The notes under the pieces are model-generated. The model saw only the letters and a list, made by a program, of their open reading frames with translations. It made no database searches and had not been told where the DNA came from. Of a stretch of 64,000 nt of DNA, positions 13,401 to 49,736 are shown piece by piece; position 1 is the stretch's first letter; every line of letters begins with the position of its first letter. Source of the stretch: a virus (Duplodnaviria > Caudoviricetes); the IMG/VR virus record IMGVR_UViG_3300028048_000065, positions 1 through 64,000 of that record; one strand, given 5' to 3'. Both the position numbers and the translations under genes were made by a program.

Positions 13401-15098
13401 TTATGCGCTGTATGCTGCCTCGAAGCAGTCATAACGAGGAACATTAAGCTGTTCAAGAAGAGCCTCCATAGGATTGGTCTTATCAGACAAAACCATCTTG
13501 AGGAGATTCGTGCTATAACCCGAAACCATGATACAACCGCGGTCATCAACCTTGAAAGGCAGGGCAAGACGATTGCTGCAATTTACTCTCCAAAAGGTAA
13601 TAATTGGCATTTTATACCCAGCATTCTTGAAGCGCTGATTAATCTCCTGCATAAAGGTCTTGTCAACAGGAGTACGATAACTGTACCAGCCATGACGATT
13701 TACCTTAGCATCGCACATGGAATCGAACTCGCCATCAGAGACAATGAGAATGCGCTCAGGCAGGTCAGACTGGGGAGAATGGTTGTCAATAGCGGTCTTA
13801 AGAATCAGGTCAAAGACCTTTTCCAGATTGGTATTAGAGCCATCCTGACACTCCCAAGTCTTACGAAGCTTGTTACAGAGGCTATCGTTATCATTAAAGC
13901 GTACAATATGAGGGTCAGCACTAAAGGTGATATACTTGTTTGCAAAAGCACCCTTGAGATGGTCTGCGCAATAAATGGCGAGAGACATAGCAACATCAAT
14001 GCAACGCATATTAGTGTTACCACCAATACCACTCTCCATAGAACCAGAGCAGTCACACACGACAAGCATACCCTTATCATCGGGAATCATATCAGGCAAA
14101 GCCTTCCACATACCCTCAAGAGTATCATCAGCCCTCTGAGGAAGTCCATACCAACGACCACTCAAATTCATGTACTTATTGACAATATCACAGGGATTCG
14201 CCACAGAAGCATTAATCTTAGCCTCACCAGTCTTGAGAGCAGCAAGAAAAGCCTGACGGCGCTCAGTATCATGGCGCAGGAATGCCTTGTTGTAGTTAAG
14301 ATTAGCCTTAGAGGGAACAGTTTCGTAGTCGATAGCAGCCCAATTATCCGAAGACATCTTGCGCTCAACAACATCAAGATACTTACGAAGAGCAGACAGA
14401 GCCTTACGATAGTTGCGTTCAGTCATGTTCAACTGCTTTGCAGTCCAAAGACCATTATCACGGGTCTGCTTAGAGTGAGAATTGGGCTTATCAAGCCACT
14501 TTCCAAGCAGAGAAATAGACTTATGCTGCTTCATGTTCTCCATGTCCTCAGCAAACTGCTTCTTAAGGAAATCGCGGACAGCCTTTTCAGAAGTGGGGTT
14601 GCCACGGAACTGATAAAGCATATCATAGCGAGAATACTCGCCAATCAGAGGAACGAGCTTTGCAGCAATGCTTGCACCGCCATTCTTTACAAGGTCACGA
14701 ATGACAATCTGAGTGAAGCGACGCTCGCCAGCACCGCAACGAATGTCCATCGTATAGCCAAGGAAACGCATAGCAAGATAAGGATTCTCATTGAAAGCCT
14801 TGCGCCAATCGGTGACAATCTGCTTCTCGTCCAGAGAACGGTAGCTTACCAACTTGGTAAACATATCAAGAAGAGCAGAAGAAGTAGTGGAATATGCCAC
14901 AGCACCATTGGTGGTATAGGTCATATTGTCGGGCAAAGACTTAGGAACAACCGCACGAACATAGAAGCCCTTGTTAGTCTTTTCCATCTTGTCGAAGAAC
15001 TTCTCCTTGTCCGACTTCTGACGCATAGGCTTTTCGGGCTTAGGAGACCAAGCCTTGTTAGAGTTCTTCTTGGAATTCTTGTTAATGTTATTATACAT
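13401..15098 (-). CDS. DUF2828-family protein (helical repeat + vWA; Ro60/TROVE-like architecture)
   Basis: TTNGAVAYSTT, DIRCGAGER, SLLGKW, IDYETVPSKA, vWA MIDAS DCSGSM, TNLEKVF, ILIVSDGEFD, SGYS; start moved to ATG 15098 (GGAG RBS); codon usage looks highly expressed. Confidence 0.85.
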   Translation of the reverse strand: MYNNINKNSKKNSNKAWSPKPEKPMRQKSDKEKFFDKMEKTNKGFYVRAVVPKSLPDNMTYTTNGAVAYSTTSSALLDMFTKLVSYRSLDEKQIVTDWRKAFNENPYLAMRFLGYTMDIRCGAGERRFTQIVIRDLVKNGGASIAAKLVPLIGEYSRYDMLYQFRGNPTSEKAVRDFLKKQFAEDMENMKQHKSISLLGKWLDKPNSHSKQTRDNGLWTAKQLNMTERNYRKALSALRKYLDVVERKMSSDNWAAIDYETVPSKANLNYNKAFLRHDTERRQAFLAALKTGEAKINASVANPCDIVNKYMNLSGRWYGLPQRADDTLEGMWKALPDMIPDDKGMLVVCDCSGSMESGIGGNTNMRCIDVAMSLAIYCADHLKGAFANKYITFSADPHIVRFNDNDSLCNKLRKTWECQDGSNTNLEKVFDLILKTAIDNHSPQSDLPERILIVSDGEFDSMCDAKVNRHGWYSYRTPVDKTFMQEINQRFKNAGYKMPIITFWRVNCSNRLALPFKVDDRGCIMVSGYSTNLLKMVLSDKTNPMEALLEQLNVPRYDCFEAAYSA

Positions 15099-15111
15099 AA
15101 TATTCTCCATT

Positions 15112-22934: not shown

Positions 22935-23349
22935 TTTTTGTTTCTCCTTAAATTTGTCTAATTAAAATGTTTAAATTGTTTACTGTTACTATATATAAAA
23001 CTACAGGTGTAGCTTATTTTTTATTGTTTGAAACCAAAGCTACACCTGTATGGTTAGTAGCAAATATGACGAAGAGAATTAAAAATCTCAAGTCCTGCAA
23101 TATACCGTGCTTCTCGTAGACAATCTTCCATAAGAGCGTCCATTGCAGCGTGTCCTAAACCACCGTTCAAACTTGCGTCCCGCTCACAATCGTTGTAGAT
23201 TTGCTGAGCTCTTGCTTCAAATTCTTCATGGGTCATTCTGTTTTGGTTCCTTTTGCTGGGGTAAAATGTGTCTTGCGAAAGGACACATGAGGTACACTTA
23301 AGTTATTCGGAAACAAGGGAGAAGAATTAACTTCTCCCTTGAGAAGCGG

Positions 23350-23422
23350 CAGAGGAGATGGGACTCTCACCCATAACCTGCGGTTTTAGAGACCGCCGCT
23401 CTGATAATTGCGCTACTCCTCG
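23350..23422 (-). tRNA. amber-decoding tRNA (anticodon CUA), probably Gln
   Basis: cloverleaf: GAGGAG/CTCCTC acceptor with 1-72 mismatch, G73, anticodon arm GCGGT-CT-CTA-AA-ACCGC, T arm ATGGG/CCCAT with atypical loop. Confidence 0.85.
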
Positions 23423-23445
23423 ATATTATTCCATCTTAGAAAGGA

Positions 23446-23577
23446 CTCGACGCTAAAGAAAGGAAACTCACCACAAAGCTAATAAAACAACACACAAATT
23501 TGATTGAAGGAATCAATGATTTAGTAAATAAAATAGTATTTTTATCTAATTATAACCTATGTTGCTGTAAGCGTCGA
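23446..23577 (-). ncRNA. ACAGCAA-stem element E1
   Basis: TCGACGCT-TACAGCAA...AGCGTCGAG. Confidence 0.75.
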
Positions 23578-23600
23578 TTTGAAAACGTATTTTTGACAAT

Positions 23601-23676
23601 TGGTAGAGCCCCTGTGACTCGAACACAGAATGGAGGATTATAAGTCCTCTCGTTTGACCTATTAACGTAGAGCTCC
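23601..23676 (-). tRNA. tRNA-Ile(UAU)
   Basis: cloverleaf, loop CT-TAT-AA, encoded CCA. Confidence 0.9.
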
Positions 23677-23681
23677 ATATT

Positions 23682-23744
23682 CTCGACCCTGTTTGAATTC
23701 TTAATTACCAGTTAAGTCCAAAAAAAGTTTGCTGTAAGGGTCGA
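23682..23744 (-). ncRNA. ACAGCAA-stem element E2 carrying a Thr(GGU)-type anticodon stem-loop
   Basis: TCGACCCT-TACAGCAA...CTTAA-CTGGTAA-TTAAG...AGGGTCGAG. Confidence 0.8.
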
Positions 23745-23791
23745 TAAAGAAAGGAAATTTTTATGATAAAAACTTATTAGGTTTTATCTTA

Positions 23792-24085
23792 TTAAACAAG
23801 AATCTGACTTGCAGTTTTCTTCTGCTCTCCCTCAAATTCATAATCAAGATGAGGATACATCTCAGGCTTTGTAATCTTGTTTTTACAAACAGGACACTGA
23901 TAAGTAAACTGTGGGGGATAAGTCATTAGCTGTGTAGGCTGTAGTTCCATCTCAGCCTTACACTTTGCACAATGAAGAGTCACCTTGAAAGTGCGAACTG
24001 CGTTTGTCTGTTGCTCATAAGTGTCAAGAACTGACTTATCAGCACCAATAATGGAAGGACCATTAGCAGTATTGATAATATCCAT
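23792..24085 (-). CDS. zinc-ribbon protein
   Basis: CAKC and CPVC. Confidence 0.6.
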   Translation of the reverse strand: MDIINTANGPSIIGADKSVLDTYEQQTNAVRTFKVTLHCAKCKAEMELQPTQLMTYPPQFTYQCPVCKNKITKPEMYPHLDYEFEGEQKKTASQILV

Positions 24086-24135
24086 TTAAAATGTTACTCC
24101 TTATTTTTGTTTTCAGGATTTATGCTATTTTTAGT

Positions 24136-24199
24136 CTCGACTCATTGTACAAATATAAACCTAAATTATATGTAGAAGAAAAATTGCTGTGAGAGTCGA
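24136..24199 (-). ncRNA. ACAGCAA-stem element E3 carrying a Leu(UAG)-type anticodon stem-loop
   Basis: TCGACTC-TCACAGCAA...TATAA-TTTAGGT-TTATA...GAGTCGAG. Confidence 0.8.
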
Positions 24200-24230
24200 T
24201 ATGGAGGAATCGAATGATTCATAATCATTG

Positions 24231-24306
24231 TGGCAGCCGATGAATGGGTCGAACATTCGTATGCGACGGTCAAAGCGTCGTGCCTTTACCACTTGGCTAA
24301 TCGGCT
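24231..24306 (-). tRNA. tRNA-Gln(UUG)
   Basis: CGACG-CT-TTG-AC-CGTCG, G73, CCA. Confidence 0.9.
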
Positions 24307-24445
24307 ATATTTAAAAAAACAAGAACTTCGGTTGGGACTTTCGATTCCTCACCCAACAACTCCAACATACCCTCCGAAGAGGTTGACCGACAGGAGGCAG
24401 TTTAATTTATTTATCGTGTTTTACTACCACGAAGTTCTTGGTTTT

Positions 24446-24516
24446 AGTGGAAGAGGGTAATCGAAACCCCACTTACGGAATCGGAGACCGTGGTTCTACC
24501 ATTAAACTACTTCCAC
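24446..24516 (-). tRNA. atypical tRNA, anticodon CCG (Arg) with U73, no encoded CCA
   Basis: GTGGAAG/CTTCCAC acceptor, D and T arms present, 31-39 mismatch. Confidence 0.6.
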
Positions 24517-24533
24517 ATTTATTTTATATACTA

Positions 24534-24562
24534 AGTATAGCACATATTTTGTAGTTTGTCAA
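24534..24562 (-). promoter_or_regulatory. sigmaA promoter upstream of the tRNA block ending in the CUA tRNA
   Basis: TTGACA-17-TATACT with TG. Confidence 0.75.
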
Positions 24563-24590
24563 GTCTTTTTTAGACTTTATTTTTCTCAAA

Positions 24591-24747
24591 CAAGAGAAGA
24601 AGTGCTCAACCATTGTGCAAAAAAGAAAGGAGGCGATTTCAAAATGAAACCCAAAAAAATGAACAGAAAGTTGAGAACAAACAAAGGAGAACTGTTAGTT
24701 ACAAACTATACCAATTGACAAAGCAATGGGAGCACGTTCTTCTCTTG
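24591..24747 (-). ncRNA. candidate sRNA with its own promoter (24759-24787)
   Basis: terminal inverted repeat; CU-rich anti-SD tracts. Confidence 0.5.
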
Positions 24748-24764
24748 ATTGTGACTTAATTATA

Positions 24765-25082
24765 TCACAGATTTTCAAGATTGTCAAGAGTTTTTTCAGA
24801 ATTATTTTTTGTGTTTTTAGAAACTCCATAAATCTCCTGAGTTACCTTGCGACGCTCAAGCTCATTCTTATAAGCCTTTTCACGAGCATCAACGTTCATG
24901 TCATTATATGCAGCAACATAAACTTCATTACCACACTCTTCACAGAACGCAATTTTTTCATCATAACTAAAATTAATTCCACGAATAGTAAGATTAACTT
25001 TAGCTACATCTGTATCATAGCCAACCATCTTATTACAATGAATACAAAAGACCGTTGGCTTAGAATTCTTAAAATCAAACAT
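24765..25082 (-). CDS. YgiT/MqsA-type zinc finger protein
   Basis: CIHC...IRG...CEECGNEVY. Confidence 0.6.
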   Translation of the reverse strand: MFDFKNSKPTVFCIHCNKMVGYDTDVAKVNLTIRGINFSYDEKIAFCEECGNEVYVAAYNDMNVDAREKAYKNELERRKVTQEIYGVSKNTKNNSEKTLDNLENL

Positions 25083-25139
25083 CAGAATAAAACTCCGTTT
25101 TTATTTATCTATTTTAACCCAAATTTGCAACTTTTTGGG

Positions 25140-25652
25140 TCAAATTTGACGGTTTTCGCGTGTATTTACCCAATATCCCGCCATGCTATATTTGGGGACA
25201 CCAGTAACCTCGGTTGCAATCATCTCAGGCCAAGGGAATTTATATTTCTTAGCTTCTGCTGTAGATTCAAATTCTACCTCAGCATAAGCCCAAGTATCAT
25301 CAACAATACTAATTTCAATAGGCTTTTGACCATCCATATAGACAGTAAAACGTTCTTTCTTGATAGCCTTTTTTCCTGTTTCCTTACTCATTTTAGCAAC
25401 AAACTTTCGAGCAGAAAAAAGCTTATCTTCAAACTCAAGCCTTTCAAGTCCATTACCAACTTTGTAAGTCAACTTGCCATTATTAGAGCCAGCTTTATAA
25501 CGAATACGAGTTTCGCTGATGATGTGATTATCAGAATCAACGATTATCTCAAGATAATACTGCCACAACTGCTCTCTAATAACGTTAGCTTTATCTGGAA
25601 AATTAAAATCTCCGCCCTTTAGAAGCCATTTACGTTCAATTTCTTTACTCAT
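25140..25652 (-). CDS. CYTH (triphosphate tunnel metalloenzyme) domain protein
   Basis: EIERKW, KLTYK, AEVEF, EVTG motifs. Confidence 0.85.
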   Translation of the reverse strand: MSKEIERKWLLKGGDFNFPDKANVIREQLWQYYLEIIVDSDNHIISETRIRYKAGSNNGKLTYKVGNGLERLEFEDKLFSARKFVAKMSKETGKKAIKKERFTVYMDGQKPIEISIVDDTWAYAEVEFESTAEAKKYKFPWPEMIATEVTGVPKYSMAGYWVNTRENRQI

Positions 25653-25722
25653 ATTTTACCTCATCAGGTTCATAGTTTTTGTTGAGGATATAATTATTGG
25701 GTCATTTCCTTTTCTATAAAGT

Positions 25723-25798
25723 TGGGGTCTGAGGCAAGAATCGAACTTGCGTAGCTCTGCTTATGAGACAGAGCAGGTAAACCAACAACCTCTCAGAC
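25723..25798 (-). tRNA. tRNA with CAU anticodon (Met or Ile2)
   Basis: loop CT-CAT-AA, TTCGA T arm, CCA; unusual C73. Confidence 0.8.
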
Positions 25799-25821
25799 AT
25801 ATTTCTATTTTATTTTTAAAA

Positions 25822-25951
25822 CTCGACACATTTTATACATTCTGTTGCTCTACCCGTTGAGCTATGTCCGCATATTGGTGCGGACAGCAGGATTCGAACC
25901 TACAACACACAGGCCCTTGCCAGTATTAAATTTTGTTGCTGTTAGTGTCGA
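25822..25951 (-). ncRNA. ACAGCAA-stem element E4 containing a circularly permuted tRNA mimic (YrlA-like)
   Basis: T arm GTAGG-TTCGAAT-CCTGC, acceptor TGTCCGC-ACCAATAT-GCGGACA, D arm GCTC-AACGGGTA-GAGC. Confidence 0.85.
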
Positions 25952-25983
25952 AGCAAAATGAGGAGGCTCATCACATCGAGCCG

Positions 25984-26060
25984 TGGTAGCTCGGGTGGAA
26001 TTCGAATCCACACTTGACGGATTTTGAATCCGCTCTCTCTGCCGATTGGAGTACCGAGCC
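25984..26060 (-). tRNA. tRNA-Leu(CAA) with short variable loop
   Basis: GCGGA-TT-CAA-AA-TCCGT, A73, CCA. Confidence 0.85.
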
Positions 26061-26462
26061 ATATTCAGTTTAGCAACTACTGACAGACCAGCTTTCCACA
26101 TATCTGCCCTCGGTTCGATTGGGGAGAGGTTTACAGGAATATTCCTACAAACTTGCACCCAATTATCTCGGTCATTTTCATTGCTAAACTTAATATTTGC
26201 TGTCTCTCCAAGCTGTCACCGCTAATATGGTTGTAGGTTCTGGACGGTCTGAACTTAGTTACGCCATACACACATCTTAACCTTGAGAGATAGTCCATCG
26301 GTTAAGCGAAGCTCTATCTTGATAAATTTGCAAGATACTATCATGCTTTCTGGTTCGAGGTGCTTATATCGGAGTCACTATAGCGCATTTTTTCATCCCC
26401 TTACACAATTTTCAAAGCAGCAACTCGTTTACTAATTGTTTATCGGTTTATCCGAACCTCGA

Positions 26463-26584
26463 TGGACCCTACAACTGGAATCGAACCAGAATACCTCCCC
26501 CGATGCGTCTGTTATCACTAAAGAGCTACTTTAGTGTTTGCTCAACAGTCAGTTAATAGGTGTGCTCCTTACACCAAGTAGGGA
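26463..26584 (-). ncRNA. tRNA-like RNA with ~60-nt insertion replacing the anticodon loop
   Basis: CCCTAC/GTAGGG acceptor, TGGTGTAAGGAGCAC D arm, CTGG-TTCGATT-CCAG T arm, CCA. Confidence 0.6.
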
Positions 26585-26705
26585 TATAAAAGGGAACCCA
26601 GCTTTATCTCGCCCTTAACGACCGTTCCCAATGCCGAACACCATACTCGTGCTTTTACTGCTTCTAATACTACGAATTTATTACGAGCAGCTATAATAAA
26701 TTCTG

Positions 26706-26792
26706 TGGCGGAGACAACAGGACTCGAACCTGTATTACCTTTCGGTAAGCTTGTTTAGCAAACAAGAGAGATGACCATTACTCCATGCCTCC
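26706..26792 (-). tRNA. tRNA-Ser(GCU)
   Basis: CTTGT-TT-GCT-AA-ACAAG, long variable arm, G73, CCA. Confidence 0.9.
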
Positions 26793-26807
26793 ATATAAGT
26801 GAGCAAA

Positions 26808-26931
26808 CTCGACACTTTTATTCAGGCCAGCCAGACTTAGACATTCCTTGCTCAAGGGTTATTCTAATAGGGAGTCGAACCCTACATGATGTTTTTTCAA
26901 GAACATTAAGTAAAATTGCTGTGAGTGTCGA
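26808..26931 (-). ncRNA. ACAGCAA-stem element E5 (Ser(UGA)-like loop plus T arm)
   Basis: TCGACACT-CACAGCAA...ATGTT-CTTGAAAA-AACAT...TAGGG-TTCGACT-CCCTA...AGTGTCGAG. Confidence 0.75.
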
Positions 26932-27078
26932 ATGGACATTAAACATTTACAAAAGAATCTGGTAGTCGGATTGAACTTCCTCTTCACCGACTGTTCGGAG
27001 GGTTAGTCACCTTAATCCTCTTGAAGAGTAGGATTCTCATACAGTCTAACCGTAGCATGAGTTATGCTTAATTACCTC

Positions 27079-27138
27079 AGTAACTAAGAAGTTGTTTAGA
27101 TAAGTTCGCTACGCTTACCTCGTGGAATATCCACGCAC
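27079..27138. repeat. 60-bp direct repeat, copy 1
   Basis: 59/60 identical to 27353-27412. Confidence 0.95.
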
Positions 27139-27352
27139 TCAGAGGTTGCTCATGAGCGATGTAACTCTTCTAATCGGAGCGAAGCTACCCCTTTCTTCAT
27201 ATTGAATAGAGTCAACCAAAGATGAACGCTCATTGGTAGCGCCTGTTGGTTTCGGAAATAGGTCCCGTCAGATTTTTCACATCACCGAGGTATCTGAAAC
27301 ATACCTTTGCCTTAACTTAAAGGATTAAGTTTGAGTGATTAATCACACCTAT

Positions 27353-27412
27353 AGTAACTAAGAAGTTGTTTAGGTAAGTTCGCTACGCTTACCTCGTGGA
27401 ATATCCACGCAC
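27353..27412. repeat. 60-bp direct repeat, copy 2
   Basis: 59/60 identical to 27079-27138. Confidence 0.95.
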
Positions 27413-27775
27413 GATTTTCCACCACTCGGGATTCTTATCACATTAGCACCCTGATAAGTTTCACCAACTATATATCGTGTTCTTCCCTTTTCATTTTCTG
27501 CTTCGAACGCCAATTGCTTGCGCTCTACTCCAAGACTTCGGACGGGAGTTGGGGCTTTAGCTTAACGGACTAAAGATGAGTTCAAATATATGGAACACCG
27601 ACAAGGCTTTAGCCATCCTTGCTGAATCGGGCAGTTAAATATAAGTTACATTCGCTATCTGCCAATTGAATGTAAATTATTGAATGGGTGATGTTTTGTT
27701 AGTCTATCACCAAGACTATGGGAGTTGGGTTGTTTTGAGACTCACCAACCATTCGTCTTCCTTGATTGTGTACTT

Positions 27776-27804
27776 AGTATAGCACATTTTGCTTTGTTTG
27801 TCAA
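27776..27804 (-). promoter_or_regulatory. sigmaA promoter upstream of the long non-coding region
   Basis: TTGACA-17-TATACT with TG. Confidence 0.75.
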
Positions 27805-27852
27805 GGGTTTTTAAAATATTTTTTAAAAATTTTTCAAAAACCTTAAAGCATC

Positions 27853-28141
27853 TAAAAACAAGATGTGGTATCTATGACCCAGTTTCATGGTGACTTATTA
27901 CAGTGGGAGCATCTAAAGGTTGTTACCCTTTACTTGAAGTCTCTCCCGACAACCCTTTTATCAAGGGCAGCGTCTAATCCGTATCATTCGGTTTTCCCGA
28001 CTCATTTCGGATTGCGGATTTCTTACCTACCGCCGTAATACCTACTGACCTGTCTATGCCAGCCCCGACCCGTCTTATCATTATACACAGACTATAAAAT
28101 CTGCTTTATTGAGTCAACTGCCGTTAGCCATCTTGTTTTTA
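27853..28141 (-). ncRNA. candidate ~290-nt structured ncRNA
   Basis: 13-bp terminal inverted repeat, promoter at 28152-28180 just upstream, raised GC, no ORF in the track. Confidence 0.55.
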
Positions 28142-28322
28142 GTGTAACTTAAGTATATCACAACATTTTGTGTTTGTCAAGGGGTTTTTAAACTTTTTTG
28201 AAAACTTTTTAAGAAATCTTTTTTTGTGACTTCTTAATTTATATATTAAGTATAGCACAGATTCCTAAGTTTGTCAAGAAGTTTAGAATAAAAATTTTCT
28301 TTTATTATGTATTGAAAATCAT

Positions 28323-28625
28323 TTAATCTTCAACCTCAATTCTAAGAATCTCTTTCTGGTTGGGCAACGTAATTGCTTCTAAACTAAGGTTTGTTTTAAC
28401 AAAATAATCTTGTGAAAATTCAATAGATAGATTGTTTAATGGTTGAACCATTTGAGTGATAAAACAATTCTTTCCATTTATTTTAGTTTTTATCTTTAGA
28501 GCAAAAGGCTTTCCAGAATCAAGGTCAAGACAAGACATATCAAAATAGCTTGTGCCGCAATACGGACATTTATTTAATTCAATATTAAATGGAGCCCCGC
28601 AGTTAATACAATTTCTACTTGACAT
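28323..28625 (-). CDS. zinc-ribbon protein
   Basis: CINCGAP and CPYCG. Confidence 0.6.
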   Translation of the reverse strand: MSSRNCINCGAPFNIELNKCPYCGTSYFDMSCLDLDSGKPFALKIKTKINGKNCFITQMVQPLNNLSIEFSQDYFVKTNLSLEAITLPNQKEILRIEVED

Positions 28626-28652
28626 GACAAATCCTTTTCTGCGTTAAATTTT

Positions 28653-28726
28653 CTCGACACTATATTATGTACGTTTATGAACCCAAATCATATGTATTTA
28701 ATATAAAAAGTTGCTGTGAGTGTCGA
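28653..28726 (-). ncRNA. ACAGCAA-stem element E6 carrying a Pro(UGG)-type anticodon stem-loop
   Basis: TCGACACT-CACAGCAA...TATGA-TTTGGGT-TCATA...AGTGTCGAG. Confidence 0.8.
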
Positions 28727-28861
28727 TAAGTAGTATGGTAAATGGTAGTCGGGTTTAGTATAAAGTTCACCGACCATTCGCTTAGCCTTCACTGTATCGT
28801 AGTTAAGGAGACCAAATATTACACGGGCAAAGTAAGTTTACACATTCTTGCCACTGGTGGC

Positions 28862-28937
28862 TGGCGGGAAATGTAAGGCTTGAACTTACGCCATCATGAT
28901 TAACAGTCATGCGCTCTACCAACTGAGCTAATCTCCC
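28862..28937 (-). tRNA. tRNA-Asn(GUU)
   Basis: CATGA-CT-GTT-AA-TCATG, G73, CCA. Confidence 0.95.
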
Positions 28938-29310
28938 ATTTCCTGTTTTATAATTTTCGTTGGAATTCTTCAACTTTCTTTTTAACTGTGGTCACAGAAG
29001 CGTGAGAACAATTATTATGTCTGAAAAGAAGATTGCCGTTTTTATCGAAAACCTCAAAATATCCAATCTTTTTATTATTTTTTACATAAAGACCAAGATA
29101 TTCAAAATCTTTTCCAGACCAAGGTTTCATATTAAACACTCCTTTTTGGTCGGCTTCTTGCTTAGATTATCACATCGTCTACTTAGGAGTCATAGTCCTG
29201 TTCATAAATCGCCATGTATACCTAACGATTCCGCAGTTTTCAGCAAGCATTGTTATTCTTTGTGGGGTAAGCCGATAATCGCCCACATCAGTTTGGAGCT
29301 ACCAAACAAT

Positions 29311-29387
29311 TGGTGCGCCAGAGGAGACTCGAACTCCTGACCTATTGCTTAAAAGGCAATTGCTGCTACCTACTGAGCTACTGGCGC
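29311..29387 (-). tRNA. tRNA-Lys(UUU)
   Basis: ATTGC-CT-TTT-AA-GCAAT, CCA. Confidence 0.95.
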
Positions 29388-29800
29388 ATATTATTTCGGT
29401 TTGGGAACGCTACTGGTTTTCAAGTGTTCCAACTCAAAATAGGAGCGTACTAACAAGAAACGCAGTAGGTTCTTCTACCTATTTAAATAGCAAGATTGAA
29501 TGTGATTGGCATACCACGTTTTAGGGAACTTTGAAACCACTCTTGCTAAATAAAACAAATTTTTTATTCTTCTTTTAATAAGAAGGTGTGTACCCAAAAC
29601 CGTTAAAATGGTACACTCGCTACCTTTTAATTTTATAGTTGGGAAGGTGTCTTTTAGCAACAACCCCAAGTAAGTGAGGCTGGTGAACTACAATTCCCCG
29701 TGAGTTATCTTACTTTCTCACAGTTACCGATTAACCAACTTTATGTATTTATTATACCATATTGATTTTGATTTGTCAATAGGTTAATAACTTTTTTATT

Positions 29801-29929
29801 CTCGACTCTTTAATAAATTCACGAAGCTGTCTTACCACTTGACTAATCCTCTCAGGGAAAGGATTATGGAATCGAACCATAGTTTGCTTCTTTGGTAAGA
29901 ATATTATAAAAAATTGCTGTAAGAGTCGA
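29801..29929 (-). ncRNA. ACAGCAA-stem element E7 containing a circularly permuted tRNA mimic (YrlA-like)
   Basis: GAAGC/GCTTC stem, T arm TATGG-TTCGATT-CCATA, looped acceptor ATCCT/AGGAT, D arm GTC-AAGTGGTAA-GAC. Confidence 0.85.
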
Positions 29930-30107
29930 TGAGATAAATCATGGAGCGCTCTTTCGAGCTTGTCTTTATATTACCACAAACATTTCTGTTTGTCAAGACC
30001 TTTTTAAACTTTTTTCAGAAATTTTGATTACTTTTTATTCATGCTACGAATATAGTCAATGACAAACATAACCCACATTCCAAGAATAAAAGGAATAATA
30101 ACATTCA

Positions 30108-30361
30108 TTATAGATACTTCTCTGGAATCTTAATACAGTTGTTGTCCCACTTTTTATAAGCGTCAAGATATGCTTCGTCCTTATCACCATTTAGAGAGTG
30201 GTGGAAAGAAGAGCCTTCCAGTTCTGCAAAGTCTTACAATACCACACAATATATACATCAAAGTTGGGTACAGTATCAGACTTATCCAAATGATTAATTA
30301 CATAATTACGGACAGCGTTCTTACTAAATTCAAAAAATTTTACATCAGTCATTTTCGTCAT
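30108..30361 (-). pseudogene. frameshifted DUF6275-like gene
   Basis: VYIVWYCKTLQNWKALLSTTL* then NGDKDEAYLDAYKKW in another frame. Confidence 0.65.
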
Positions 30362-30386
30362 ATATCCTTAAATAAATATAAAACAA

Positions 30387-30470
30387 TATAGGATAGGGTA
30401 ATCGAAACCCATCTATTCTCATAGACATTCTCTGCGCTGAGAATCTTAGACCTTCTAAGTTTATCCTATA
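30387..30470 (-). ncRNA. tRNA-like cloverleaf with enlarged anticodon loop
   Basis: TATAGGATA/TATCCTATA, CTTAG/CTAAG, ATTCTCA-16nt-TGAGAAT, GGGT-TTCGATT-ACCC. Confidence 0.6.
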
Positions 30471-30471
30471 A

Positions 30472-30546
30472 TGGTGATGGGTAGCAGAATCGAACTGCTG
30501 TTAAAAGGATGAAAACCTTTTGTCTTAACCACTTGACCAACCCACC
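30472..30546 (-). tRNA. tRNA-Glu(UUC)
   Basis: AAAGG-TT-TTC-AT-CCTTT, CCA. Confidence 0.95.
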
Positions 30547-30596
30547 ATATATTCTCCATCAGTTTAACGCCGATGGAGAGAGCGTAAAATCATAAT

Positions 30597-31064
30597 TTAC
30601 TTGCTTGTTGCAGTGGTAGTTACAGTTGGAGTAGGAACATCTGCACTACTATTCATACCAGTTTGAATATAACCAGAGGTTACATACTCCGTTGTCTTAG
30701 CCTTAGTATTACCCTTTAGAGCGCCACTAATAGCATAAACAGCAGCCTCAATCTCCTTGCGTAGAGCTGTCTCGTCATAAACAATTCCCATGTCAGCGAG
30801 CTTCTTCTCAGCATAGTCCATAGCTTCCTGCAACTTCTTCTGTCCATCCCAACCCATAGTAAGCCCCATCTGTTCAGCAGCCTTTACTGCAATCTCAGCA
30901 ATAGACTTATAAATCTCAATGGTTGCAAGAGCCTTGTCAATGGTTGCAAGAGCCTTATCAATCTTATCCTGACCATACTTATTACGCAAGGTAGGGATAA
31001 CGACTGCGGTACATAGAGCAACGCAAAGACCAATAACCATAATTACAATCTGAGTAACATCCAT
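30597..31064 (-). CDS. LL-H family phage holin-like protein
   Basis: N-terminal TM; AVKAAEQ, G.KK, IEAAV; internal 21-bp duplication (DKALATI x2). Confidence 0.75.
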   Translation of the reverse strand: MDVTQIVIMVIGLCVALCTAVVIPTLRNKYGQDKIDKALATIDKALATIEIYKSIAEIAVKAAEQMGLTMGWDGQKKLQEAMDYAEKKLADMGIVYDETALRKEIEAAVYAISGALKGNTKAKTTEYVTSGYIQTGMNSSADVPTPTVTTTATSK

Positions 31065-31067
31065 ATT

Positions 31068-32171
31068 TTATAATATCTCCTTTTTTTGTTTTGGAAATTT
31101 TAATATATAAAAGCTTTCAATAAAAGCAATTATTTCTTCTTTTGTGTGTTTTTCCGTATATCGCATTATTTTATGCTGAGGTAATTCCAAATATTTTTCC
31201 CAGCCTGTTGCTGTTTTTTCTATGTTATCTATACGATATACTGGGTAATTTTTCTTTGGCTTATGTTTTTTAGGAGGTTTTATGGGTTTCTTTAAATTTA
31301 ATTTTTCAACCCATTTTTTAATTGCAGTATCACTTACACCATAAAAACGTGCAATAGAAGAATAGGATTCAAAATTGTTTAAATGTTTTTCTAATTCTTC
31401 TTTAGGTGGACATTTAGAATTATAAGAATTTTCTTCTTTGTAGCATTTTAAACATAAAGACGCATTTTGAGAAATAATACTGCCGCATTTTTTACAACGG
31501 TTTTTATTTAAAAGTAATTCTTCTGAGAAAGGATTTTTTAAAATAGATAGATTTTTACCTGCATAAGTATCAGTAAGAGCATGACAATTTGGACAAATTA
31601 CCGCTAAGTTCTATAAACTATTATTTGTTCTATTTCCATTTATGTGATGAACTTGTAAAGGGATTTTTTGCCCTTGCCATTCAGTAAGTCCACAGTATTC
31701 ACATTTTTCAAAAGACTTTAATCCAAATTTAATTAAATATCTTTTTATCCCCGTTTTAATTACACTATTCTCACAAAAAATTTCTTCTTTAGAATATTCT
31801 TTATGAACTCTTTTTAAATTTTCTTTTTTATTCTAATACAGAATTTCTATACTTAATTGTCTTTTGTTTATCTCTGTTTGCAAAAAATCATAATTATCAT
31901 CAGAAATACAAAGATTTAATTTTAAAAGAACATCTCGAAAACTTGTCGATTCATCTAATATTTGTTGTAATTGAGCGTCAGTAAGAATAGACAAACAATT
32001 ACGAGACTCATGCTAACATCTTTTTGAATTTAAAACTTCTTCTTCACTTTTATAAACCTGTTTTCCGCATTTTATGCATTCTACCCAATATTTTTTAAAT
32101 CCGTTTTTAGAACGAACTCTACTCTACCCTAAAATTTTATAAATTCCAAATACTTTATCTTTTTCTAACAT
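31068..32171 (-). CDS. HNH homing endonuclease (4 in-frame TAG read as sense)
   Basis: 367-codon frame; CEYCG, PLQVHHING, NL, CPNCH; C-terminal HTH; missing from the ORF track because of TAGs. Confidence 0.85.
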
Positions 32172-32213
32172 TTTATTTTATTTTATTTACCTTTTTTGTT
32201 TTTATAATAATAA

Positions 32214-32364
32214 TGGAGCAAGATGCCAGATTTGAACTGGCACTTGAGCTTTGGTGCCAATAATAAGTTTTGCCCTTATATTAAAACAAAAATTTTTTGT
32301 CTTAGTTTTTCATTAAACTATATTGACGGAAGAGCCCCGTGCTAACCATTAACACTAATCCTGC
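32214..32364 (-). tRNA. tRNA-Gly(UCC) interrupted by a 75-nt tRNA-like insertion
   Basis: GCAGGAT/ATCTTGC, U73, CCA; removing 32253-32327 restores GGGCT-CT-TCC-AA-AGCTC. Confidence 0.85.
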
Positions 32365-32492
32365 ATATTAGGGATAGCACCACGCATGATACTATCCCGT
32401 GGTGTCTCCGAAGAGAAGTCACGCGCTAACCGAGCAAAGCTCCACCACATCACAACGAAAGGATTGTTGTAAGCAAAAATAAAAGTATGTTT

Positions 32493-32930
32493 TTATCCTA
32501 CCGCTTCAATGCGCGGTCCATCATCTGCCGTTTTCCAAACAACAAGGACTTCATCTGTCTCCTTGTCTACGGTCAAAAGATAAACAGCATCATAAGGAAG
32601 CCAATTTGTTGAGATATAACGATAAGTTTCTCCCGTATCATATTCCATCTCTTGAAAGATGTATGCTCCATCTGTACCACGAGCTACAATTTCTGCTCCA
32701 ACATATTTTGTAGGAGACTGGATAGTTTTATCCAAGCTATTTGTTAGAGAATAACCAATAGCAACTCCACAAACAATTACTACTGACAAAAGAGCAGTAA
32801 AAAATTTCAAAACATTTTTGGTGGAACTGTATTCTTTCGCCAAATTTATAGCAAAAGGGGGGATAAAAAATACCAGTAATCCCAAAACTGAAAAAAGAGT
32901 AATTACAAAAACAACTTTATCGAAATTCAT
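32493..32930 (-). CDS. hypothetical membrane protein
   Basis: two TM helices. Confidence 0.55.
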   Translation of the reverse strand: MNFDKVVFVITLFSVLGLLVFFIPPFAINLAKEYSSTKNVLKFFTALLSVVIVCGVAIGYSLTNSLDKTIQSPTKYVGAEIVARGTDGAYIFQEMEYDTGETYRYISTNWLPYDAVYLLTVDKETDEVLVVWKTADDGPRIEAVG

Positions 32931-37034: not shown

Positions 37035-38282
37035 TTACTTAATTTCAACAAGATAGCGAACTGTAACTTGGTCGGGACGATAGAAAATAATCTCAGGATT
37101 TCGGAGCATTCCTTTTTCGGGAGAAGCATAAACACAATGACAAGGAGGATTTTTCTTCTGTAATACATCAAAATTAAAATGATAGCATTCAGAAGTATGC
37201 TCATAAACTATATAAGGATTACCATAAGCAACTTCAAAAATTGCCATAAATCCAGTTTTAGCACTTCCTCTTGCCCAATAAGACCCAGCGGTAGAAGTAT
37301 AACCAATACTCTTTCGAGCAAGAGTGGAAAAATAGAGCCCGTCGGAAAACATCGACCCTGTATATACTGCATTGGCAGGACGAATTTTCAAACCAGTTTT
37401 AAGAATATTGAAAAAGTTTTCACTTCGAGAACCATGCCACATAAGTTTGGTATTATCAATTTTATATTCAGAGCAAAACTTTTTAAAATGTTTGTCTGTT
37501 TCATGATTGTTAACTCGCCAAACTTTAACAAAACGGTCACTGTCTCGACCAAGCATCTTTTTTACAAGAGCCACATCTTCCGCAGTAGCATCTTCCATAG
37601 TAATACCCATTTCATCAAGAACAGAAACTTCATTATTATTGGTGTTACTATCAGCATTTTTCTTTTCAATCTTTACAGGCTTATAAACCTGACCTGCCAT
37701 AGCATCAAGAGTGCTCTGCTCTCGGTCAATAATAGATTTAAAAGAATCAAGGTCATTTTTATAAATAAGGTAATCACTTACATTACTCATTTTACGAGGA
37801 ATAACCATGAAGATTTCCAAAAGCTTTTTGTTGAACTGGTTATAATCCATATTCTCGTAATTAAGAGCAAGATTATCAATTAGGCTCTGAGCTTCATCAA
37901 TCATAGCCTGAGTAACAACGGAAGATTTAACCTTGTAAGCAGACTGAACAACCTTGTTCGCAAAATCATATAGACGCTTAATAATATCTCGAACAGACTT
38001 ATTTTCAATTACTGAAAATTTATCTTTTCCCTCTGTAGGCTCTTCCTCTTTAGAATTTTCAATTACATCTGTCATAAGATGTGTCTGAGAAACATAGCCC
38101 TTCTTAAGCTTAGAATTAATCTGCGAATCCCACTTGGACATGGGATAAATTTTGGTGCTTTCATGTCCACCTACTCGACCGTACTTTACAGTAAAAGTCC
38201 CATCAGAATTTGGTTCGCAATTATAGAATTTATTATGATTGTCAGATGTAACCATAATCAAATAAACAGGCGTCTTTTCCAT
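37035..38282 (-). CDS. PARP-like ADP-ribosyltransferase with WGR domain
   Basis: NKFY and YGRVG (WGR); LMWHGSR, GLYFS, KSIGY, terminal NPEII (H-Y-E triad). Confidence 0.85.
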   Translation of the reverse strand: MEKTPVYLIMVTSDNHNKFYNCEPNSDGTFTVKYGRVGGHESTKIYPMSKWDSQINSKLKKGYVSQTHLMTDVIENSKEEEPTEGKDKFSVIENKSVRDIIKRLYDFANKVVQSAYKVKSSVVTQAMIDEAQSLIDNLALNYENMDYNQFNKKLLEIFMVIPRKMSNVSDYLIYKNDLDSFKSIIDREQSTLDAMAGQVYKPVKIEKKNADSNTNNNEVSVLDEMGITMEDATAEDVALVKKMLGRDSDRFVKVWRVNNHETDKHFKKFCSEYKIDNTKLMWHGSRSENFFNILKTGLKIRPANAVYTGSMFSDGLYFSTLARKSIGYTSTAGSYWARGSAKTGFMAIFEVAYGNPYIVYEHTSECYHFNFDVLQKKNPPCHCVYASPEKGMLRNPEIIFYRPDQVTVRYLVEIK

Positions 38283-38374
38283 AAGGAAATCTCCTTTGAT
38301 AAACTTAAATGAGGTATGATAGAATAATACCATACCTCATTCGTTTTGTCAATAGGTTTTTATGATTTTTTTGC

Positions 38375-46673: not shown

Positions 46674-48626
46674 TTAAAGTCCTGCTTTCTTAATAAATTC
46701 GTCTTCTGACATAATAGGAATATTAAGCTTCTTAGCCTTTTCAGCCTTACTTGAACCACTATCTCCATCATTTGTAAGCAAGAAAGAAGTCTTTGCCGAT
46801 ACTGAACCAGAAAGCTTTCCTCCACGGTTAGTAATAATTTGCTCCAATTCTGAGCGTTTATAATTATTAAAGCTGCCCGTAACAACAAAAGTCTTACCTG
46901 AAATAAAATCATCTGCACTAACCTTGGGAGCTTCTTCAACAATAAAACTAAACTCCTTATCAAGACCAGCCCAAAGAGGATTAGGATTAACCCAAGCATC
47001 ATTCATAGCATCTGCCATTGCTTTACCAAAATCATCAAGAGTGCTAAAATCAAATCCATGTTCCCACGCATCTTTGAAGAAACCATAGTTACCATTAAAT
47101 GCCTTAGAAATAGTCTTACCAGCAGTCTTTCCAATAAGAGGAATACCAAGGGAAGTGATAAAATTACTCAGCTTAATCTCACGAGATAGCTCGATAGCTT
47201 CATAAAGCTTCTTATAACTCTTTTCACCAAAACCATCAAGCTTAATGATTTCATCCTTGTGGTCGGACAAATGATAAATGTCCGCAAAAGTCTTAATAAA
47301 GCCGAGGTCAATAAACTTAGAAAGGATTGCTTCACTCAAGCCATCAATATTTGCACAAGGCTTGGAAACAAAATGCACAAACTGAGCAAGCTGTTTAGCA
47401 GCACAAGAAAAATTGTCACACCATATAGTTTCAGCCCCTGATGAAGAAATTTCTCTGCGTAATTTACCGCCACAACAGGGACAGGTTTCAGGAATAATAA
47501 GATTATTACTTTCAGTAAAGTTCTTTACTATGTTAGGAATAACTTCATTCATTCTGGATACCGCTATTTCGTCTCCAATACCGAGTTTAAGGTTTTTAAT
47601 AAAGGTAATATTGTTTAAAGTAGCTCGTGAAGTAATAGCTCCCCCTAAGTCTACAGGCTTAAAAATGGCTGTTGGAAAAACTACTCCTGTTTTCCCTACA
47701 TTCCATTGTACATCCTCTAAAACAGTTTTAATCTGTTCCATTTTTCTTTTCCATGCAAATTGCGAGTTCAAATGATGGGATGTTGCTCCCAAAGATTCTC
47801 CAAAACTTACGTCATCATAAGAAACAACTAAACCATCAACAGGAATCTTAGCTTCCGAAGCTTTTTTATAATACATATTTTCAAAAAGTGACGGAAGTTC
47901 ATCTAAAGAAATTTTGCCATAAAATTTATGTGGAACTACTTCAAACCCCAAGTCACTTAAAATGTTTAAATTGTTTTCAAAAGAATTAGTTAAGGTCTCT
48001 CCTTTAACATATTTCCAAGCAATAAAACTTAAATTACGGTCTTTTGTTACTTGAGTATCGAGTTGTCTAATACCACCAGCAGCATAGTTGCGAGGATGAG
48101 AAAAATCATCTGAACAATTAGCCTGATTAAAAGCGTCCCATTTAACAATAATTTCTCCATCTACTACTATTTCGTCTTGTTCAGAAATTGTTAATGGAAC
48201 ATTAGAAACCATTTTTATATTTTCTGTTACATCTTCTCCAATAAAGCCATCTCCCCTTGTTTCTGCTCTTACTAATTTTCCTTTTTTATATAAAAGGCTA
48301 CAAGTAAGACCATCACATTTAAGCATAAAAACAACAGGTTGTTCCCCAATAAATTTCTTTATTTCTTCATTATCTGTGCTTTTAGCTAAACTTAGCATAG
48401 GATGGTTATGTTTAACTTTTTTTAAAGAAGATTGAATAGTAGCTCCAACCTTTTGAGTTGGAGAACCATTGAATTTTAATCCCGTTTCAGCTTCCAACGC
48501 TTTCAACTCATCAAAAAGTGCGTCGTATTCAGCATCTTCAACTAAAGAAATGTTATTATTATAATAAGAATTTCGATAAAAATTAATCTTTTCTATTAAT
48601 TCTAAAATTCTTTCTGACAATTTCAT
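46674..48626 (-). CDS. ligA: NAD-dependent DNA ligase
   Basis: YD.L..EL, HPMLSL, KCDG, TRGDG, PRNYAAG, Zn finger, HhH, BRCT; own GGAG RBS before ATG 48626. Confidence 0.9.
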   Translation of the reverse strand: MKLSERILELIEKINFYRNSYYNNNISLVEDAEYDALFDELKALEAETGLKFNGSPTQKVGATIQSSLKKVKHNHPMLSLAKSTDNEEIKKFIGEQPVVFMLKCDGLTCSLLYKKGKLVRAETRGDGFIGEDVTENIKMVSNVPLTISEQDEIVVDGEIIVKWDAFNQANCSDDFSHPRNYAAGGIRQLDTQVTKDRNLSFIAWKYVKGETLTNSFENNLNILSDLGFEVVPHKFYGKISLDELPSLFENMYYKKASEAKIPVDGLVVSYDDVSFGESLGATSHHLNSQFAWKRKMEQIKTVLEDVQWNVGKTGVVFPTAIFKPVDLGGAITSRATLNNITFIKNLKLGIGDEIAVSRMNEVIPNIVKNFTESNNLIIPETCPCCGGKLRREISSSGAETIWCDNFSCAAKQLAQFVHFVSKPCANIDGLSEAILSKFIDLGFIKTFADIYHLSDHKDEIIKLDGFGEKSYKKLYEAIELSREIKLSNFITSLGIPLIGKTAGKTISKAFNGNYGFFKDAWEHGFDFSTLDDFGKAMADAMNDAWVNPNPLWAGLDKEFSFIVEEAPKVSADDFISGKTFVVTGSFNNYKRSELEQIITNRGGKLSGSVSAKTSFLLTNDGDSGSSKAEKAKKLNIPIMSEDEFIKKAGL

Positions 48627-49736
48627 TTTATTACTCCATTTAATATAACGATTATATTTTCTATTAAGATAGATAGTAGCATCTTCATAAAGCCAATCAA
48701 GAAAAATTTTGCACTCTTGCATTTTGCTGAGTCTTAAATCCCATATTTGAGTTCGCGTTTCTTGATAAAGTGTAAAATTTACTTTTAACTTATCATATAA
48801 ATAATCTTTTATCGCATTTAAGAAATTATAATTACCTGTAAAATAACAACTTATTGAACGTCTCTTGCCACAACTTAACCCTCCATCTCCATCAAAATAA
48901 CCACGAATAAAATGTTTAATTAAATTCTCTTCTAAATAAGAGGGGAAAGTAATTTTAAAACTTTTATTTTGACACAGACCTTTTTCTAATAATTTTTGAG
49001 TCATTGCTACACTCTATATTACAAATGAAGGATAATATTTATCAGTCAATTTTTGGTAAATAAAAAATAAAGGTTTTTCATTTTTTGTAATTTGTCTAAA
49101 TTTTTCCAAATGTTCTACATCTTCAGGCTTTAACGTAATAGTTAAAGTATTTCTATCTTCACTTATACTGCCATCTGCAAAGACAAACCCTAAAAAGTAT
49201 GCCTTTTCCTAAGTATCAACATCATCAAAAAAGCTCAAATCAAAAGAATAAAGACGATGCCTATCTTCAAAAAGTTTTACATTTTCTTCTTTTAAAATTT
49301 CATACATGGTATTTGGAGTGGTTTTGTGTTTACGGCAAATTTCAATTAAATTTAATTTTTTATTGATATAATCTTCTTTTAATTCTTCTCTATTTATTTT
49401 TTCTTTATTAGTTGCTCTTTCCCACCCATATTTTCTTGCTAAACCGTGAAGTGCTGTTTGAGGTGCTTTATATTTTAAAACCAATTCATCTAAAGTTAAT
49501 ATTCCTTTTAAATAATCTTGCTTAAAATCATCTAAATGAGAATATAAAAAAGTATATTGATTGTTTCCTTTTGGCTCATTTAATCTATGAGAACTCAAAA
49601 AACGAGCCATTGTTGATTGAGAAACATTAAATCTTCGCCCAAGTTCTGTTATATTTACCCGCTAATTAAATAACTATTCAATCTTTTCTTTATTTTCTTC
49701 AAGCTAATCCTTCAAATATTTTTTACTCATTGTCAT
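48627..49736 (-). CDS. LAGLIDADG homing endonuclease, in frame with ligA (5 TAG)
   Basis: DT*EKAYFLGFVFADG and HFIRGYFDGDG; no stop before ligA. Confidence 0.85.

Follow-up and report, generated by a model that had tools for sequence, protein, structure and literature searches.

A tRNA-Gly(UCC) gene of a large rumen phage is split directly after its anticodon by a 75-nt insert that is itself shaped like a tRNA, and this arrangement of one tRNA nested in another is a real feature of the genome that goes beyond chance. The window, i.e., the whole stretch of 64,000 nt that we analyzed, is the first 64 kb of a linear IMG/VR virus record of 149,498 bp that is an estimated 69% complete. Judged by its sequence and predicted fold, the insert is a member of a widespread but barely described family of tRNA-shaped inserts in phage tRNA genes. 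The evidence that members of this family are functional is strong, yet comparative throughout, and the splicing route that we put forward for them is a proposal.

The split tRNA-Gly gene and its nested fold

All tRNA genes of the window lie on the minus strand, within positions 23348 to 32364. The split tRNA-Gly(UCC) gene was called neither by ARAGORN with default settings nor by the Rfam run. With introns allowed, ARAGORN reported a tRNA-Gly(tcc) with a 75-nt intron at c[32214,32364]. The 5' exon (32328 to 32364, minus strand) holds the 5' strand of the acceptor stem, the D arm, the GGGCT strand of the anticodon stem, the loop nucleotides CU, and the anticodon UCC. The 3' exon (32214 to 32252, minus strand) continues with A37, A38, the AGCTC strand of the anticodon stem, the variable loop, the T arm, the 3' strand of the acceptor stem, U73, and an encoded CCA. 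The insertion point lies between nucleotides 36 and 37. When the exons (32364 to 32328 plus 32252 to 32214) were joined, ARAGORN recognized a canonical 76-nt tRNA-Gly(UCC) with the loop CUUCCAA, U73, and the encoded CCA. The first-pass annotation, made from the sequence alone, had claimed that removal of the insert restores a canonical CT-TCC-AA loop; the call on the joined exons bears this out, and an empty site in a close relative (see below) agrees with it.

The insert (32253 to 32327, minus strand; inner bases +1 to C75) folds into a cloverleaf of its own, with all the arms that had been listed for it in the first-pass annotation. The 5' strand of the inner acceptor stem, GTCAATA (32321 to 32327), starts at the 5' junction, which is also the predicted RNase P site. 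It is followed, after a TA linker, by the inner D arm GTTT-AATGAA-AAAC (32305 to 32318). An A/U hairpin of 9 bp with a 3-nt loop (32283 to 32303), devoid of an anticodon loop, takes the place of the anticodon arm. The inner T arm ATAAG-GGCAAAA-CTTAT (32263 to 32279) stacks on the acceptor stem to form a 12-bp minihelix, and the 3' strand of the acceptor stem, TATTGGC, with the tail ACC (32253 to 32262) ends the insert. The next base, the A at 32252, completes an inner ACCA, yet it is also A37 of the outer tRNA.

The minimum free energy (MFE) fold of the 151-nt gene is a cloverleaf within a cloverleaf (z = -3.06; 0 of 200 shuffles were as good), and the insert folded by itself is likewise a cloverleaf (z = -2.78). 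Against the Rfam tRNA model RF00005, the insert scored 26.6 bits, which is below the gathering score of 29 (E = 0.0038 in a search of 901 bp on both strands with 4227 families). Its T loop, GGCAAAA, lacks the usual U54-U55, and ARAGORN found no tRNA when run on the insert alone. With the 9-bp A/U hairpin and its 3-nt loop as the third arm, the insert cannot decode. It is present in a single copy in the 149-kb record, and scans of IMG/VR with exact and degenerate patterns found no other copies of it.

Empty and differently filled sites in relatives

We found four close relatives (L002 to L005) through a neighboring DUF5662 protein with 95 to 98% amino acid identity. The first-pass annotation had suggested a comparison with uninterrupted alleles, and L003 supplied one: it carries the same tRNA-Gly without the insert (L003:11707-11782; 92% identical over all 76 nt), with the empty site falling exactly at CTTCC|AA. 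In L004, the outer tRNA is the same, but the identical position is filled by another tRNA-shaped insert, of 92 nt; in L005 and L002, the slot is occupied by a different, uninterrupted tRNA-Gly. The slot is preceded in L002 to L005 by the same conserved 118-nt structured RNA. In the window, this RNA (32365 to 32482, minus strand) lies directly upstream of the tRNA-Gly and has an MFE of -41.9 kcal/mol (z = -4.4). It consists of a 6-bp stem around three small hairpins, reminiscent of a miniature cloverleaf, and then a 12-bp hairpin; it is nearly invariant in L002 to L005, with its few changes confined to a hairpin loop, and had no match in Rfam.

On the other side of the gene, 42 nt downstream, we observed an open reading frame for a free-standing HNH endonuclease (31068 to 32171, minus strand; 367 amino acids, four in-frame TAG codons read as Gln; Pfam HNH_3 and HNH) that is missing at that spot in L002 to L005. 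It is a possible homing partner of the insert. The tRNA arrays of kin contain paralogues of it, but these do not adjoin inserts with any consistency, and the Gly insert found in metagenome contigs has none beside it.

We also scanned metagenomes for contigs in which the Gly 5' exon precedes an insert with a 7-nt stem strand and TAGTTTAA at its start. The scan found 19 contigs, which together with L004 gave 13 distinct insert-bearing Gly alleles beyond the window copy. Their inserts are of types A (L004-like), A', B, and B', the last without the middle hairpin. The D arm of the window insert recurs identically in the L213-type Gly insert and nearly identically in the L004 and L113 inserts. The middle module is swapped or missing in types B and B' and in L113, which indicates that the A/U hairpin is dispensable. 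The CC that the first-pass annotation had described as duplicated is indeed present at both junctions, but it is not a target-site duplication: one copy belongs to the anticodon and the other to the inner CCA, and none of the 13 other alleles has it. As this duplication is missing elsewhere and the acceptor stems differ between lineages, we rejected the insertion of a MITE-like element or another transposon.

Covariation was analyzed on the 14 Gly alleles at this site (the window copy and the 13 others), which include at least four insert types. RNAalifold recovered the outer cloverleaf together with the inner acceptor and T stems. In the nested structure, 99.8% of the cells were paired, compared with 88.2% in shuffled alignments (0 of 500 reached the observed value) and less than 47% when the pairing partners were slid. 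All seven pairs of the inner acceptor stem had changed on both sides, with pairing kept in 100% of the cells. In the outer anticodon stem, two pairs covaried, and the outer acceptor and D stems were invariant. Compensatory changes are also seen in the window copy itself, in both the inner and the outer tRNA: the inner T stem differs from that of its kin by two double changes that keep the pairing (ATAAG/CTTAT versus GCAAG/CTTGC), and the anticodon stem has one compensatory change relative to L003. The invariance of the outer acceptor and D stems, combined with the covariation of the anticodon stem, implies that the exons are under selection. The pattern suggests that the exons act like a working tRNA and that the insert is kept for its shape and not for its sequence.

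A family of nested tRNAs with a common junction rule

In a broader scan, 36 related loci were searched for a hairpin of 5 bp and 7 nt stacked on a 7-bp stem, both lying within a 7-nt loop that a 5-bp stem closes. The tail could measure 0 to 5 nt, the position in the loop was free, and a candidate counted only if its spliced product was called a tRNA. By design, the scan sets the 5' junction at the inner +1, and every case had a single solution. This yielded 53 nested tRNAs with 36 distinct inserts from about 15 lineages, distributed over Gly, Glu, Gln, Lys, Leu, Ile, and Thr tRNAs (seven anticodons), with insertion sites between 32/33 and 36/37. Removal of the insert gave a 7-nt loop with U33, a purine at position 37, and an anticodon that matches intron-less homologues in 53 out of 53 cases.

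The 3' junctions of the 36 distinct inserts follow NCCA in 29, TTCA in 1, ACA in 4 (all of one lineage), a lone discriminator in 1, and ACC in 1, the last being the window insert. Across the family, the inner discriminator is variable and the CCA is kept, and the 12-bp acceptor/T minihelix is common to every insert. The inner elements of two relatives exceed the Rfam tRNA threshold (42.7 and 41.6 bits). The window insert shares the location: it interrupts the anticodon loop of a tRNA that is canonical in all other respects, and a 7-nt loop is left when it is removed. It also shares the 5' junction, which is base +1 of a 7-bp acceptor stem stacked on a T stem of 5 bp whose loop has 7 nt. Its 3' junction does not follow NCCA; the tail is ACC.

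ARAGORN with introns allowed placed several of the relatives' introns wrongly, and it named Lys, Glu, Gln, Ile, and Gly genes as Pro, SeC, Glu, Cys, or Trp. When the junctions were redefined from the inner element, all spliced products were canonical tRNAs. For instance, the spliced Gln(UUG) is 98.7% identical to its intron-less homologue over 75 nt, and a gene called Pro by ARAGORN is Lys(UUU), with 88 to 93% identity to intron-less homologues. These intron-less alleles bear out the redefined junctions independently. On these comparative grounds, the junctions are set by the inner tRNA mimic and not by the outer tRNA. Since standard tools miss or misname split genes, the tRNA sets of recoded phages are undercounted and misread, and the rule that the insert runs from the inner +1 to NCCA offers a simple annotation aid for split phage tRNAs.

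Two other kinds of tRNA-like gene came up in the same genomes. One is about 120 nt long and is found in the window (26463 to 26583, minus strand), in three related records (L002:9058-9177, L004:17300-17419, and L194:13339-13457), and in several metagenome loci. It has an acceptor stem, a D arm, a T arm, and a UCCA end around a central 8-bp hairpin, with no recognizable 7-nt anticodon loop; ARAGORN names it variously Ser, Lys, Ile, or Val with "introns," and it does not follow the nested-tRNA rule. The other is a class II tRNA-like gene (L113:2925-3229, plus strand; also in L188) with a 219-nt insert in its anticodon loop. This insert is far larger than the tRNA-shaped ones and may be a different type of intron.

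In a full-text literature search, the only printed mention of tRNA-shaped phage introns that we found concerns Lak megaphages (Devoto et al. 2019, Nat Microbiol, PMC6784885; Fig. 4 and Table S6). That study described "enigmatic" introns in Lak tRNAs, including tRNA-Gly(TCC), and remarked that one of them "itself may encode a tRNA," with no Rfam hit; it proposed neither a mechanism nor a junction rule. Like the family described here, the Lak introns are anticodon-loop inserts of large gut phages that recode TAG, and they contain a tRNA-like module of acceptor stem and T arm. They differ in having a hairpin leader of ~26 nt and ending in CA, whereas the junctions of the window family are the ends of the mimic itself (+1 and usually NCCA), and the sequences are unrelated.

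Phage enzymes and a proposed splicing route

The first-pass annotation had named a phage Rnl1/Pnk pair, and the phage does encode an Rnl1-type RNA ligase adjoining a polynucleotide kinase. The ligase (56203 to 57576, minus strand; 457 amino acids), a candidate sealing enzyme, matches PF09511 with 51.5 bits against a cut-off of 28.3 and has intact motifs I, IV, and V (KMDG, EGWV, and KVKV). A PDB sequence search with this protein gave no match, which marks it as a divergent Rnl1. Rnl1 was found in 9 of 10 kin records, including all complete ones; since kin that lack a given intron have it as well, its occurrence favors none of the explanations considered here over another. The adjoining gene (57576 to 58532, minus strand) encodes a candidate end-healing enzyme in which a P-loop polynucleotide kinase is fused to an HD phosphohydrolase (Pfam AAA_33; NCBIfam bacterial Pnkp kinase part and HDIG), and both the P-loop and the HD motif could be seen in its sequence. 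Outside the window, the phage encodes a beta-CASP ribonuclease (G000 C1:103795-105255, corresponding to L206:724-2184; minus strand) in which metallo-beta-lactamase, Beta-Casp, and RMMBL domains were recognized. In NCBIfam, Cas14 (type VII) and aCPSF1 match it best, though with scores well short of the respective cut-offs, and 5 of 5 complete kin genomes have it with about 56% identity. RtcB and a CCA-adding enzyme were not found in the phage record, which is 69% complete.

RNase P, RNase Z, and the CCA-adding enzyme recognize a tRNA by its acceptor/T minihelix with the elbow and CCA. Cleavage by RNase P gives an upstream fragment with a 3'-OH, cleavage by RNase Z-type enzymes gives a downstream fragment with a 5'-phosphate, and these are the two kinds of end that ATP-dependent Rnl1 ligases join. 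We propose that the insert is a protein-dependent intron that is cut out by RNase P and a 3' tRNA-end endonuclease and whose exons are sealed by Rnl1, a reading to which we give an even chance of being right. Such an intron, which has no ribozyme, would imitate the upper half of a tRNA precursor, with a 7-bp acceptor stem stacked on the 5-bp T stem, the T loop and D arm, and an (N)CCA end. Host RNase P would cut at the inner +1 and leave the 5' exon with a 3'-OH. A 3'-end endonuclease, either a host enzyme of the RNase Z/BN type or the phage beta-CASP ribonuclease, would then cut at the inner 3' end and leave the 3' exon with a 5'-phosphate. The phage Rnl1-type ligase would seal the resulting nick in the anticodon loop, and the kinase/HD enzyme would be on hand should the ends require healing. 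Both the occurrence of splicing and its enzymatic steps are what we infer from these comparisons.

Excision by tRNA-end enzymes followed by Rnl1/Pnk joining had already been put forward in the first-pass annotation. The excision part fits the comparative data on the 53 nested tRNAs, in which the 5' junction is always at +1 and the 3' junction is usually at the inner 3' end; the part given to Pnk fits less well, as the ends left by RNase P and RNase Z do not need it. Several observations count against our preferred reading: the 3' rule is broken by one base in the window (ACC|A) and in L004-type inserts (ACA|AA), the window insert is below the Rfam threshold and has a T loop without U54-U55, and the ~26-nt leader of the Lak introns sets a caveat on a model of RNase P and RNase Z alone. 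Among 22 sequencing runs, 6 are recorded as RNA. Contigs of three rumen metatranscriptomes and of the DNA run that is the likely source were compared with positions 31800 to 32800; they left 32208 to 32343 uncovered and showed no joint across the insert, and one RNA run contained a strain with the other, uninterrupted type of tRNA-Gly.

The same intron might instead be cut by a dedicated endonuclease, of phage or host, that reads the tRNA-like shape and leaves 2',3'-cyclic phosphate and 5'-OH ends, which the kinase/HD enzyme would heal before Rnl1 seals them. This is the route of tRNA splicing in fungi and plants and of tRNA repair in phage T4. It would give a task to the healing enzyme, which is superfluous for RNase P/Z ends and whose gene directly adjoins that of the ligase, and it would accommodate a 3' junction whose distance from the inner stem is not fixed (tails of 1, 3, and 4 nt). 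The 5' leader of the Lak introns, which lies beyond what RNase P removes, also speaks for it: since RNase P alone cannot free a 5' exon that is followed by a leader of ~26 nt, introns of this kind may be cut by another nuclease, either in place of RNase P or besides it. Nevertheless, kinase and ligase pairs are common repair modules of phages, with introns or not, and no candidate for the dedicated endonuclease was identified. Furthermore, the 5' junction coincides with the inner +1 in 53 of 53 nested tRNAs, and the CCA is conserved next to a variable discriminator; both are what recognition by RNase P predicts. We consider a dedicated endonuclease unlikely.

The 3' junction of the window copy

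At the Gly site, the order in the relatives is inner stem, NCCA, AA, outer stem; in the window, ACCA and a single A stand between the inner and the outer stem. All nine alleles of types A', B, and B' have NCCA (TTCA in one of them) and AA ahead of the outer stem. The L004-type lineage lacks one C (ACA|AA) and has a 3-nt tail; it is represented by four distinct variants at six loci on five contigs (L004 is identical to L214/L223). The first-pass annotation had worried that cleavage directly after the discriminator would leave two extra C residues. This problem has gone, as the 3' junction of the relatives falls after the inner CCA and not after the discriminator.

The window copy poses a different problem. 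The A of its inner CCA doubles as A37 of the outer tRNA, so a correct 7-nt loop needs a cut after C75. Such a cut would join GGGCUCUUCC to AAAGCUC and give the 7-nt loop CUUCCAA, whereas a cut after the CCA, as in the relatives, would join GGGCUCUUCC to AAGCUC and give the 6-nt loop CUUCCA. Being one A short, the window copy may thus yield a faulty product unless it is cut after C75, and a nuclease that measures from the inner stem would produce 6-nt loops from the window copy and from L004-type alleles alike. That the L004-type lineage persists and diversifies suggests that 3-nt tails are tolerated.

We also considered that the family is spliced while the window copy is defective, having lost an A and thereby gained a 6-nt loop; it could be a recent casualty, or the missing A could be an error of the assembly. 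The single A of the window against the extra A in nine of nine type A', B, and B' alleles is what this would predict, and the window insert has been found once only, in this record. Its exons are otherwise intact, though, and include the compensatory change in the anticodon stem relative to L003, the L004-type lineage has persisted and diversified with a 3-nt tail as well, and errors in A3/A4 homopolymers are rare in short-read assemblies. A defective window copy is improbable in our view.

Quite improbable, too, is that the insert is not an intron at all, i.e., that the tRNA gene was inactivated when a selfish mobile element of tRNA origin entered its anticodon loop or that the inner RNA is the product and the outer tRNA serves as a scaffold for its processing. 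The presence of the insert differs between near-identical phages, HNH endonuclease genes are scattered in the tRNA arrays, and RNase P with a 3' nuclease would free a stable tRNA-like RNA, all of which could be expected from such an element or product. The exons, however, have stayed intact and show covariation among alleles whose inserts have diverged completely, and removal of the insert gives a proper 7-nt loop with U33, purine 37, and a matching anticodon in 53 of 53 cases. Moreover, the relatives have no target-site duplication and no terminal repeats past the acceptor stem, and the middle of the inner RNA is not conserved.

As stated in the first-pass annotation, the insert is too small for a group I intron and shows no obvious bulge-helix-bulge. 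At 75 nt and with no Rfam ribozyme match at E<=10 in 31900 to 32800, it is neither a group I intron nor a self-cleaving ribozyme, and in the MFE and consensus folds both junctions lie in one internal loop of 5+5 nt around a 7-bp helix. A bulge-helix-bulge, in contrast, has two 3-nt bulges that hold the splice sites, with a 4-bp helix between them.

Relation to known tRNA processing

Group I introns of bacterial and phage tRNAs, such as that of the cyanobacterial tRNA-Leu(UAA), resemble the inserts in their anticodon-loop site, in their variable presence among alleles, and in the frequent company of homing endonuclease genes. They are self-splicing, measure at least about 200 nt, and have a conserved core, whereas the window insert has 75 nt and the fold of a tRNA. 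The protein-spliced tRNA introns of archaea and eukaryotes are closer to our proposal, which likewise has proteins cut and ligate at the anticodon loop, and the phage gene pair is comparable to Trl1, which unites Rnl1-like ligase and Pnk-like kinase modules. Those introns rely on a bulge-helix-bulge and on a splicing endonuclease with RtcB or Trl1; the window insert has no such motif, and tRNA mimicry would take its place. To our knowledge, bacteria lack the splicing endonuclease.

In T4 tRNA restriction-repair (PrrC, Pnkp, and Rnl1), a phage Rnl1-type ligase and a kinase-phosphatase partner also reseal an anticodon loop. The break there is inflicted by the host on a host tRNA, whereas the phage studied here would carry out a programmed processing of its own precursor. 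A tRNA-shaped module also directs RNase P and RNase Z in MALAT1 mascRNA, in the t-elements of plant mitochondria, and in the multimeric tRNA precursors of T4. The flanks are not rejoined in those cases; in the nested gene, the flanks are tRNA halves, and ligation is needed.

We know of no demonstrated case of a protein-dependent tRNA intron in bacteria or in bacterial viruses. If true, a route of RNase P, a 3' tRNA nuclease, and Rnl1 would be a new splicing pathway, and phage Rnl1/Pnk pairs would gain a programmed job besides the repair of nuclease damage. The broader proposition is that large gut and rumen phages have a third kind of tRNA splicing, besides self-splicing ribozymes and the archaeal/eukaryal splicing endonuclease, in which mobile, pre-tRNA-like introns are cut at +1 and CCA by RNase P and a 3' nuclease and the exons are rejoined by Rnl1; we hold its chances to be slightly short of even. 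In that event, the role of Rnl1/Pnk would be a housekeeping one, and the intron might shield phage tRNAs from anticodon nucleases, or silence them, until the ligase is made.

Other features of the tRNA array and the genome

Apart from the split gene, the tRNA array includes a suppressor tRNA(CUA) at 23348 to 23422. Several open reading frames (31068 to 32171, minus strand; 24726 to 25685, plus strand; 52004 to 52801, minus strand; and others) are long only if TAG is a sense codon, which together with this tRNA fits a recoding of TAG in part of the genome. A 71-nt tRNA with the anticodon CCG (24446 to 24516, minus strand) has U73, G1-C72, and G3-C70, which are Gly-like and not Arg-like features; they are compatible with CGG being read as Gly in the phage, as may be the case.

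Two further RNA elements lie in the array. One (27980 to 28128, minus strand) matches RAGATH-33 RNA (RF03102) with 118.6 bits against a gathering score of 120.4. The other, between tRNA genes (25820 to 25923, minus strand), is a weak match to the Y RNA-like YrlA (37.1 bits; E = 3e-5), and together with a DUF2828/DUF7788 protein encoded at 13401 to 15110 (minus strand) it fits Ro-like ribonucleoproteins.

Elsewhere in the window, an open reading frame for an NAD-dependent DNA ligase (46674 to 49736, minus strand; 1020 amino acids, five TAG codons read as Gln) contains a LAGLIDADG domain at residues 274 to 346, ahead of the adenylation domain, which possibly represents an intein or a fused homing endonuclease. 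The protein encoded at 37035 to 38333 (minus strand) has a PARP catalytic domain and also a weak WGR match below the Pfam cut-off.
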